Source of the DNA: a virus
IMG/VR virus record: IMGVR_UViG_3300046096_000411
Coordinates: 29,363-93,362 of that record
Length of the DNA: 64,000 nt
Reading direction: 5' to 3' (one strand)
The position numbers were made by a program, and so were the translations under genes. A model generated the notes under the pieces. That model was not told the DNA's origin. It made no database searches and saw only the letters and a program-made list of their open reading frames with translations. Below are positions 52,724 to 54,483 of this stretch, one piece after another (positions within the stretch are counted from its first letter, which is position 1; each line of letters opens with the position of its first letter).

Positions 52724-53010
52724 TGGTGGGCGCTGTAGGGCTCGAACCTACGACCCGCTGATTACGTACCGCCACGGTTTCCACCGCCCCCGAAGGGTTT
52801 GCAGTCTGGACTATCCCTTCGCCATGGCCCGAAGGCTGTAGGCGGGTGCCGTCTAGTCTCTACACCTTCCCCTTGCGGGGCTTGGCTCGGGATTGCCACC
52901 AGCCGAACTGTGAGGGTTCCCCGACTTTGACACCTGTTCACCGACCGGTTTCCCGAGCGGGCTCCTAATACGTCCAGAGTCAGCTGCTCTGCCAACTGAG
53001 CTAAGCGCCC
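52724..53010 (-). tRNA. tRNA-Lys(CUU) interrupted by a group I intron
   Basis: Exon 1 53010-52976 GGGCGCTTAGCTCAGTTGGCAGAGCAGCTGACTCT; exon 2 52764-52724 TAATCAGCGGGTCGTAGGTTCGAGCCCTACAGCGCCCACCA; gives a 76-nt cloverleaf. Confidence 0.93.
52765..52975 (-). ncRNA. Self-splicing group I intron (211 nt, Azoarcus-like IC3, no ORF)
   Basis: U before the 5' splice site; terminal G; IGS AUUAGGAG pairs with both exons; GCCAAGC, GAAGGUGUAGAGACUAGACGGCACCC and GAUAGUCCA core elements. Confidence 0.92.
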
Positions 53011-53039
53011 AACTTCACTCCTACCAGGGCCGAAGCCCT

Positions 53040-53265
53040 GCGCCCTATTAGCGCCCTTAACAGTCGACCGCAACCAAAAAACCCAGCAATCTCAAGCAAA
53101 AATTTTGCTGGACTTAGTGTTTAAGAGTGGCGAGAATCAAGCATCCCGCAAATACACGGAGATGCCAAAAAGCACGCGATTTCAACCGATTACTCGAATC
53201 CACTTATCACGCAATCACCCATACATTCCCCGCATATCCCGGCGTTTTGCGCCCTACTAGCGCCC
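53040..53265. other. Putative attP: 17-bp direct repeats flanking an anticodon-loop-like core
   Basis: GCGCCCTA(T/C)TAGCGCCC at 53040 and 53249; TTAAGAGT at 53121-53128. Confidence 0.55.
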
Positions 53266-53316
53266 CAAATTCTGGAGCGCGGCGCGAGCCGGGAAAAAAG
53301 GGCGCAAGAGGACAAC

Positions 53317-54483
53317 ATGCCAAAACTCACCAAAACCACCGTCGACAACCTCAAGCCAACCGCCACCGAACTGTGGGTCTGGTGCTCCGAACTCCCCGGC
53401 TTTGGAGTGCGCTGCCAGCCCAGCGGCAACAAAACCTACATCGCCCGCTACCGCACCCAGGACGGCACCCAGCGCAAGCAGAAGATCGCCCGCACCTGCG
53501 ACATGCCGCCGGACAAAGCCCGCGACCTGGCGCGCAAGGTCTTCGCCGCCGTAGCCGAAGGCAAAGACCCCAAGCAGGAGCAGCGCGAAGCCAAAGCCGC
53601 CCCCACGGTGACCGAGCTGTCCGAGCGCTACATGAAAGAGCACGCCGAGCCCTTCAAGAAAGACGCCAGCGTGCGCAGCGACGCCAACAACTGGCGCCTC
53701 CACATCCTGCCCGCCATGGGCAGCAAGAAAGTGCGCGCCATCACCAAGGCCGACGTGCTGGGGCTCATGGGCAAGATGACCGACAAGCCAGCAGCCGCCA
53801 ATCAGGTCGTGGCCCTGCTCAGCAAGTCCTTCAACCTCGCGGAAGACTGGGGATGGCGCGACACCAACAGCAACCCATGCCGTCGCGTCAAAAAGTACAA
53901 GATCGCCGAGAAAGAGCTGATCCTCAGCCACACCGAAATAGGCGTGCTCGACAAGGCCATGACCGACATGGTGGGCGGCGGAACCCTGCGCCCCGAGTTT
54001 GCCTCCTTCATCCGCCTGCTGATGCTCACCGGCTGCCGAAAGAGCGAAGTCATGCTGGCACGCTGCGAGTGGATCGACTTGGAACGCGGCCTCCTGCTGC
54101 TGCCCGACTCCAAGGTCGGCCAGCGCAAGATTGCCATGTCACCAGCGGCCATCCAGATCGCCAAGGCGCTCATCGCCAACGGCGGCGAATGGCTCATCCC
54201 CGGGCGGCGCGTCGGCAAGCCACTCCAGACCCCGTACAAAGTCTGGAAAGCCGTGAAGGAAGCCGCAGGCCTGCCCGTTGAACTGCGCCTCCACGACCTG
54301 CGGCACAGCGCCGGGTCACTGGCACACATGGCAGGAGCCAGCCAGAAGCAGGTGGCCACCATGCTCGGCCACAGCCAGCTCAGCACCACCGAGCGATACC
54401 TGCACGGCATGACCGGCGACGCGGCCGCTACAGCGGCCAAGATCAGCGAAGTGATTACCAAGGCGTGGGCGACGCAGGCGTGA
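53317..54483 (+). CDS. int: Tyrosine integrase with N-terminal arm-binding domain
   Basis: LPGFGVR, TGCRKSE, HDLRH, LGH, TTERY. Confidence 0.96.
   Translation: MPKLTKTTVDNLKPTATELWVWCSELPGFGVRCQPSGNKTYIARYRTQDGTQRKQKIARTCDMPPDKARDLARKVFAAVAEGKDPKQEQREAKAAPTVTELSERYMKEHAEPFKKDASVRSDANNWRLHILPAMGSKKVRAITKADVLGLMGKMTDKPAAANQVVALLSKSFNLAEDWGWRDTNSNPCRRVKKYKIAEKELILSHTEIGVLDKAMTDMVGGGTLRPEFASFIRLLMLTGCRKSEVMLARCEWIDLERGLLLLPDSKVGQRKIAMSPAAIQIAKALIANGGEWLIPGRRVGKPLQTPYKVWKAVKEAAGLPVELRLHDLRHSAGSLAHMAGASQKQVATMLGHSQLSTTERYLHGMTGDAAATAAKISEVITKAWATQA

Follow-up and report, generated by a model that had tools for sequence, protein, structure and literature searches.

In tRNA-dependent lysogeny the integrating phage breaks a host transfer RNA (tRNA) gene and supplies the replacement. 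The experimental demonstration of this mechanism comes from mycobacteriophages, and Gordonia phages were predicted to use it too (Guerrero-Bustamante and Hatfull, mBio 2024, PMC10865867); the actinobacteriophage cases include Fionnbharth, cluster L, Gaia, BrutonGaster, OneUp, and Mollymur, with cores of 8-17 bp (PMC10865867). Prophages of Sinorhizobium meliloti that resemble Mesorhizobium phage vB_MloP_Lo5R7ANS also disrupt a host gene, tRNA-Leu(UAG), and carry a tRNA of the same isoacceptor (PMC11476347). Here we analyzed the last 64 kb (the window) of the 93,362-bp virus record IMGVR_UViG_3300046096_000411, where a tRNA-Lys(CUU) gene split by a group I intron is located close to a putative phage attachment site (attP) and a tyrosine integrase gene (int). 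Group I introns in the anticodon loops of bacterial tRNA genes are known from Azoarcus tRNA-Ile, Agrobacterium tRNA-Arg, and cyanobacterial tRNA-Leu. The comparisons described below suggest that the region 52714-54483 is probably the integration module of a temperate phage of ~93 kb, which uses tRNA-dependent lysogeny with an intron-split replacement tRNA. The breakage of the host tRNA-Lys(CUU) gene and its rescue by the phage are well supported by the comparison of related sequences. This mechanism is already known (PMC10865867), and what is new relative to it is the intron, together with the integrase clade and the phylum of the hosts.

The attP core and the intron-split tRNA-Lys(CUU) gene

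The attP core was located by comparison with two IMG/VR contigs, whose integrases are 96% (L085, the same as L004) and 94% (L086, the same as L005) identical to that of the window. The 92.9-kb contig L086 and the window are colinear along the P arm as far as CCACTCTTAA, and beyond the core L086 continues directly into TCAGCGGG...CCCACCA (TCAGCGGGTCGTAGGTTCGAGCCCTACAGCGCCCACCA), a tRNA 3′ half identical at 41 of 41 positions to the 3′ exon of the window tRNA. At the same place the core of the window is followed by ACACTAAGTCC..., and 59 nt of unrelated sequence stand where L086 has the contiguous tRNA 3′ half, while the P′ arm repeats and the phage genes past them are common to both. Because the homologous core of L086 runs into a tRNA 3′ half, the alignment identifies ACTCTTAA as the attP core, which corresponds to the anticodon loop of tRNA-Lys(CUU), and points to tRNA-Lys(CUU) as the target. 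Beyond its P′ arm the window contains a cassette of ~325 nt, composed of a hairpin, a leader, the intron-split tRNA, and a trailer. The same intron-split tRNA is carried by L085, where the core is not contiguous with a tRNA 3′ half either. The integrase homologues P0002 (88% identity, on a 121.9-kb contig), P0003, and P0004 were also among the closest.

The tRNA-Lys(CUU) gene was found on the minus strand (window 52724-53010, genome c[82086,82372]) using ARAGORN with introns allowed, which placed a 211-nt intron between nucleotides 35 and 36. The gene and its intron escaped both ARAGORN at default settings and Rfam at its gathering thresholds. The D- and T-loops of the tRNA are canonical and its CCA end is encoded. 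It is the sole credible tRNA in the 93-kb genome; the same search also proposed a tRNA-Ala(cgc) with a 175-nt intron (window 22398-22671), which has a poor structure and was judged a false positive. The pre-tRNA is enclosed by an 11-bp helix formed by the leader and the trailer (GGAGUGAAGUU / AACUUCACUCC). The flanks GTGAAGTT / AACTTCAC also enclose the intronless tRNA-Lys of Aeromonas phage ST4 (L001 ~3560-3650), and ST4, L093, and L102 also have GTGAAGTT in their P arms, upstream of the core; this sequence may bind a protein or act as a signal for processing.

The sequence ACTCTTAA is present once in the window, where ~0.45 occurrences are expected, so that the single count by itself is not significant. 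The core lies between two 17-bp direct repeats of the pattern GGGCGC-N5-GGGCGC (Table 1), which occurs four times in the window as compared with 0.13 expected. The P′ arm pair is kept in L085 and L086 as GTAAGGGCGC..TAGGGCGCAGG, and GGGCGC(A) pairs were present on either side of the core in all relatives examined. Two more pairs (window 30514-30530 and 23790-23806, minus) are located far from attP, and they may be extra arm-type integrase sites or chance matches. These results agree with the original prediction, which had described a tRNA-Lys(CUU) split in its anticodon by a group I intron, and had proposed that an 8-mer equal to the anticodon loop plus one base, located between direct repeats at 53040 and 53249, was an attP core with no contiguous tRNA 3′ half and with tRNA-Lys(CUU) as its target. 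The further claim, that the phage supplies a complete tRNA of this isoacceptor close to the core, is supported by L086 and by the lysogen described below.

The integrase clade and a natural lysogen in Geminicoccus harenae

A natural lysogen is present in the isolate genome of Geminicoccus harenae, which contains a 94.5-kb prophage (G001:C245:130560-225260; L168-L173) with an integrase 63% identical to that of the window and with translated similarity to the window's phage across the whole prophage interval. At the int-proximal junction (~130.65 kb) the P arm is followed by ACTCAAAATCCGG and the 3′ half of the host tRNA-Leu(CAA). At the far junction (~225.18 kb) the host 5′ half is followed by the same 13-mer, ACTCAAAATCCGG, then by non-tRNA phage sequence, the arm repeats, and a full tRNA-Leu(CAA). 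A single copy of the host 3′ half is present in the genome, and CAA-type loops were found in the prophage tRNA and in the broken half, with no others. The one tRNA-Leu(CAA) gene of the host is thus split in G. harenae, and the prophage tRNA-Leu(CAA) is the sole intact copy.

The survey of the clade comprised 33 loci with integrases at least ~44% identical to that of the window. Classical attP sites, in which the core and the tRNA 3′ half are contiguous, were found in the clade for tRNA-Lys(CUU), tRNA-Arg(ACG), and tRNA-Leu(CAA), and they include the site of Dolphis, an isolated phage. Seven intronless loci contain a core followed by non-tRNA sequence, arm repeats, and a full tRNA with the same anticodon and orientation as the core; five of them carry tRNA-Leu(CAA), one tRNA-Leu(UAA), and one, from ST4, tRNA-Lys(UUU). 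The cores of these seven loci retain the anticodon loop and at most five stem nucleotides. The ST4 core, GACTTTTAATCAG, matches stem-loops that are common among Pseudomonadota tRNA-Lys(UUU) genes, and the corresponding sequence of its own tRNA is GGAACTTTTAATTCT. In the clade the core is mostly located ~150-210 nt upstream of int and in the same orientation, with a distance of ~330 nt in L088. The presumed classical attP sites of L006 and L007 are instead the attR junction of an integrated prophage, and the 13-nt "core" in L216 is actually a neighbouring tRNA-Leu gene in a tRNA array.

Integration of the window's phage at tRNA-Lys(CUU) and the function of its tRNA can be outlined from these comparisons. 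The integrase would bind the GGGCGC pairs flanking ACTCTTAA and recombine this core with the anticodon-loop sequence of the host's tRNA-Lys(CUU) gene. With non-tRNA sequence after the attP core, the host gene would be rebuilt at neither junction. Since the phage tRNA gene is located just past the P′ arm in the orientation of the core, integration would place it ~110 bp downstream of the 5′ half of the broken host gene, from where it would supply the lost tRNA. The predicted broken junction consists of the host 5′ half ...GCAGCTG, then ACTCTTAA, and then ACACTAAGTCCAGC, with the host-side sequence taken from L086 and from Pseudomonadota genes. Of 401 Pseudomonadota sampled, 40 had a tRNA-Lys(CUU) with the stem-loop GACTCTTAATCAGC, and the gene was almost always single-copy.

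Table 1. Coordinates of the features of the putative integration module and of neighbouring genes in the window
Feature	Position	Strand	Description
tRNA-Lys(CUU) trailer AACUUCACUCC	52714..52724	-	pairs with leader; read from sequence
tRNA-Lys(CUU) 3′ exon	52724..52764	-	41 nt, CCA encoded; ARAGORN
Group I intron	52765..52975	-	211 nt, no open reading frame, between anticodon nucleotides 35 and 36; Rfam Intron_gpI
tRNA-Lys(CUU) 5′ exon	52976..53010	-	35 nt, ends ...GACUCU; ARAGORN with introns allowed
tRNA-Lys(CUU) leader GGAGUGAAGUU	53011..53021	-	complementary to trailer, the pair lengthens the acceptor stem; read from sequence
P′-arm pair of putative arm-type integrase sites GGGCGCTAATAGGGCGC	53040..53056	-	17-bp repeat
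attP core ACTCTTAA (assigned by alignment)	53121..53128	-	equals tRNA-Lys(CUU) anticodon loop plus one base; no tRNA sequence after it
P-arm pair of putative arm-type integrase sites GGGCGCTAGTAGGGCGC	53249..53265	-	17-bp repeat
Tyrosine integrase, int	53317..54483	+	388 amino acids; Pfam Phage_integrase E=1.7e-19, Arm-DNA-bind_3 E=4.9e-14
HTH_17 protein	50519..50737	+	Pfam HTH_17 E=5.3e-6, at cut-off
HU/IHF-like DNA-bending protein	50734..51006	+	Pfam Bac_DNA_binding E=3.7e-26

The N-terminal arm-binding domain of the integrase is of the P4 type. The invariant columns of the integrase alignment include R241, H326, R329, H352, and Y361, which are taken to be the catalytic positions. The genes of the HTH_17 protein, which may act as an excisionase or recombination directionality factor, and of the HU/IHF-like protein, a possible accessory factor of attP, are located 2.5 kb upstream. 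Together with a superfamily 1 (SF1) helicase (AAA_30/UvrD_C_2) they form a segment (window 50519-52167) that is syntenic with ST4 and Dolphis.

The group I intron and its possible role in masking

The intron matched the Rfam family Intron_gpI (RF00028) with 38.3 bits and E=4e-8 at a relaxed threshold. As read from the sequence, with the boundaries set by ARAGORN, helix P1 would be formed by the last 5′ exon nucleotides CUCU and the guide GGAG, with U.G at the splice site, and helix P10 by the start of the 3′ exon, UAAU, and the adjoining AUUA; the 3′ end of the intron is ...UACG, with a terminal G. The window gene was aligned with 19 further tRNA genes that carry introns, all from viral contigs; the consensus fold of these 20 pre-tRNAs has 68 pairs, with compensatory changes in 41, and it includes the tRNA stems closing across the intron. 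Between the window and L085 there is one difference in the 211 nt of the intron and one in the 76 nt of the exons, as compared with 4-6% differences in the arms, int, and a neighbouring open reading frame, which indicates constraint on the intron.

The distribution of this intron type was examined using the core motif GGTGTAGAGACTAGACGG, which is present in more than 120 viral contigs in IMG/VR, from which 80 loci were fetched (L175-L254). About 60 of these 80 introns sit in tRNA anticodon loops, mostly of tRNA-Leu(UAA). Viral intron-split tRNA genes of this type go uncalled by default tRNA finders. An integrase was found nearby in two of the 80 loci, those of the window's phage and of Gordonia phage Daredevil, and the other 78 had no integrase-like open reading frame. 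Among 251 sampled Pseudomonadota genomes, 12 carry an intron of this type; tRNA-Arg(CCU) and tRNA-Leu(UAA) were seen as host genes, and no tRNA-Lys gene with the intron was seen among these bacteria.

Daredevil, whose integrase is only distantly related to that of the window, is the sole isolated intron-bearing case. It contains an unannotated tRNA-Lys(UUU) gene split by a 238-nt group I-type intron (L003:1417-1728, minus strand; NC_048021.1 ~41820-42131), and this gene is located ~170 nt from the phage's own attP core, a 16-nt sequence equal to the spliced stem-loop of the tRNA. The intron had no match in Rfam at E<=0.01. A special kinship of the Daredevil and window introns was considered and rejected, since their 66.7% identity is close to the ~65% identity to tRNA-Leu introns.

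The original prediction also held that the intron masks the att core in the replacement gene. One part of this claim is a fact, because the intron takes the contiguous core out of the DNA; that it is kept to prevent self-recombination is something that we still infer. The stem of the window tRNA is the same as that in the L086 attP, and when spliced the tRNA stem-loop would be a perfect bacterial attachment site (attB). In its spliced form the host-type stem-loop of the phage gene would thus be a second attB, located ~145 bp from attP in direct orientation. Recombination of attP with an unmasked tRNA gene would cost the phage its P′ arm together with the 5′ half of this tRNA. The 211-nt intron splits the stem-loop as CTCT/TAA in the DNA, and self-splicing would remove it from the RNA, which would still give a normal tRNA.

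In most of the intronless replacement tRNAs the anticodon stem is recoded. In G. harenae, the prophage and host tRNAs differ at 6 of 10 anticodon-stem positions versus 5 of 75 elsewhere (p=1.8e-4); three stem pairs are recoded, all in a compensatory manner, and the rest of the tRNA is nearly identical. The other intronless cassettes of the clade also differ in the stem from the flanks of their own cores, and the replacement tRNA of Gordonia phage BrutonGaster has its loop-closing pair flipped. Both intron-bearing tRNAs, of the window's phage and of Daredevil, retain the host-like stem-loop. This comparative pattern favours a masking role, which is plausible, though unproven. We consider it possible, with a likelihood somewhat short of even, that the intron has been kept because it bars the integrase from the phage's own tRNA gene. 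A more general idea is that group I introns in anticodon loops can shield a tRNA gene, at the level of the DNA, from integrases with their crossover in that loop, and that a phage uses such an intron here against its own integrase; this seems less likely than not.

The most probable alternative accepts tRNA-dependent lysogeny and regards the intron as a selfish passenger, which either arrived together with the tRNA-Lys gene or invaded it, persists by self-splicing, and has no protective role. This explanation has a substantial, though less than even, chance of being correct. The intron family is almost confined to tRNA anticodon loops and is common without an integrase, as seen in the viral contigs and in the Pseudomonadota genomes described above. 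Moreover, the intronless replacement tRNA-Ile2(CAT) of OneUp tolerates the whole 10-bp core ACTCATAATC (L303:760-835, ~1010-1030), so neither recoding nor masking is obligatory, and OneUp's own tRNA gene might serve as a secondary attB. On the other hand, both intron-bearing tRNA-Lys genes are found in att modules although their integrases are distantly related, both keep the host-like stem-loop where most intronless cassettes are recoded, and none of the sampled bacteria had the intron in a tRNA-Lys gene. The sample behind this comparison of phages is small, and its lineages are not independent.

Several observations weigh against the reading of the locus as a module for tRNA-dependent lysogeny with a masked replacement tRNA. 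Besides the tolerance of the full core by OneUp and the small, phylogenetically dependent sample behind the masking comparison, the anticodon loop is the usual site of this intron type, and the position of the insertion is therefore not special. The identity of the core with the tRNA extends over just 8 bp, and the 38.3 bits of the window intron do not reach the Rfam gathering score of 50. The self-splicing of the intron out of the RNA and the aminoacylation of the product are predictions. No promoter or terminator was called around the window tRNA, and the hairpin that follows the core showed no folding advantage over shuffled sequence (z=-0.37), so that transcription of the tRNA by read-through from the host promoter is an idea only. 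The integrated relatives with a split host tRNA that the original prediction envisaged are represented by the clade relative in G. harenae, at tRNA-Leu(CAA), but no lysogen or junction of the window's phage or its close kin was found in a scan of genome contigs with a single protein or in the scans of metagenomes and viral sequences. The metagenome scan for the core-P′ junction matched the sister contig alone, and the viral scans with P0002 and P0132 found no new close relatives. As to the other intron-bearing phage, Daredevil is reported to form clear plaques, like a phage without a complementing tRNA, and was scored as being tRNA-less (PMC10865867), and its GenBank record likewise treats it as tRNA-free. 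The T-loop of its tRNA, ATCGAAA, has an unusual A at position 54, and this tRNA may be impaired.

The Daredevil data, together with the lack of lysogens of the window's phage in the scans, could also be explained if the split tRNA were decaying or non-functional, in which case integration would either be lethal to the host or not succeed, leaving the phage effectively lytic, as was reported for Daredevil. This is improbable for the window's phage, because the D- and T-loops of its tRNA are canonical, the CCA end is encoded, the core of the intron agrees with the covarying fold, and the tRNA with its intron is far more conserved between two contigs than are their flanks. It is very improbable that the tRNA is unrelated to integration, serving lytic translation or countering tRNA-cleaving defences, with the 8-mer as a chance match, even though a counter-defence role has been proposed for phage tRNAs, tRNA-Lys is the target of PrrC (PMC10865867, PMC10264068), and the 8-mer count carries no weight by itself. 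Against this reading, the sequence homologous to the 8-mer in L086 begins the tRNA half, the adjacent tRNA shares the anticodon and orientation of the core in every non-restoring cassette examined, no other credible tRNA is present in the genome, and the G. harenae lysogen shows a host gene replaced.

Comparison with known integration systems

The reading of the locus as a tRNA-dependent integration module would extend this mode of lysogeny from actinobacteriophages to a widespread clade of ~90-kb phages of Proteobacteria, for which a natural lysogen provides evidence, and would describe a compact cassette with the replacement tRNA directly behind attP. Intron-split replacement tRNAs are missed by standard tRNA finders, as illustrated by Daredevil, which was published as tRNA-less and has one. 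The masking proposal offers a testable DNA-level function for a group I intron, to which a recoded anticodon stem would be the alternative solution. If it were true, the logic of a shield could explain the persistence of such introns in bacterial tRNA genes.

The classical tRNA-restoring attP sites of L086 and of Pseudomonas phage Dolphis share with the window's site the integrase clade, the arm layout, and the core position; L086 also shares the target tRNA-Lys(CUU). The window differs from them in that no tRNA 3′ half is contiguous with the core, and a full gene is located beyond the P′ arm. The window intron resembles the group I introns of bacterial tRNA genes in its length of ~200 nt, the lack of an open reading frame, and the same conserved core motifs, as well as in the anticodon-loop site and the short P1 made from loop nucleotides, while it differs from them in its host gene, tRNA-Lys, in its site, 35/36, and in its location in a phage gene next to attP.

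The prophages that resemble Lo5R7ANS are similar to the scheme proposed here in that they break a tRNA gene of an alphaproteobacterial host and themselves encode a tRNA of that isoacceptor. They belong to another phage group and have no intron, and the anatomy of their att sites is not described in the source (PMC11476347). The actinobacteriophages with tRNA-dependent lysogeny have in common with the window's phage a tyrosine integrase with arm sites and a short core inside a host tRNA gene that is not rebuilt, and the gene order of BrutonGaster, int, P arm, core, P′ arm, and tRNA, is that of the window. The clade of the window is distinguished from them by its Proteobacteria hosts and by a different integrase family with a P4-type arm domain, and the window's case, known from sequence alone, by a replacement tRNA that is cut by a group I intron at the crossover site.

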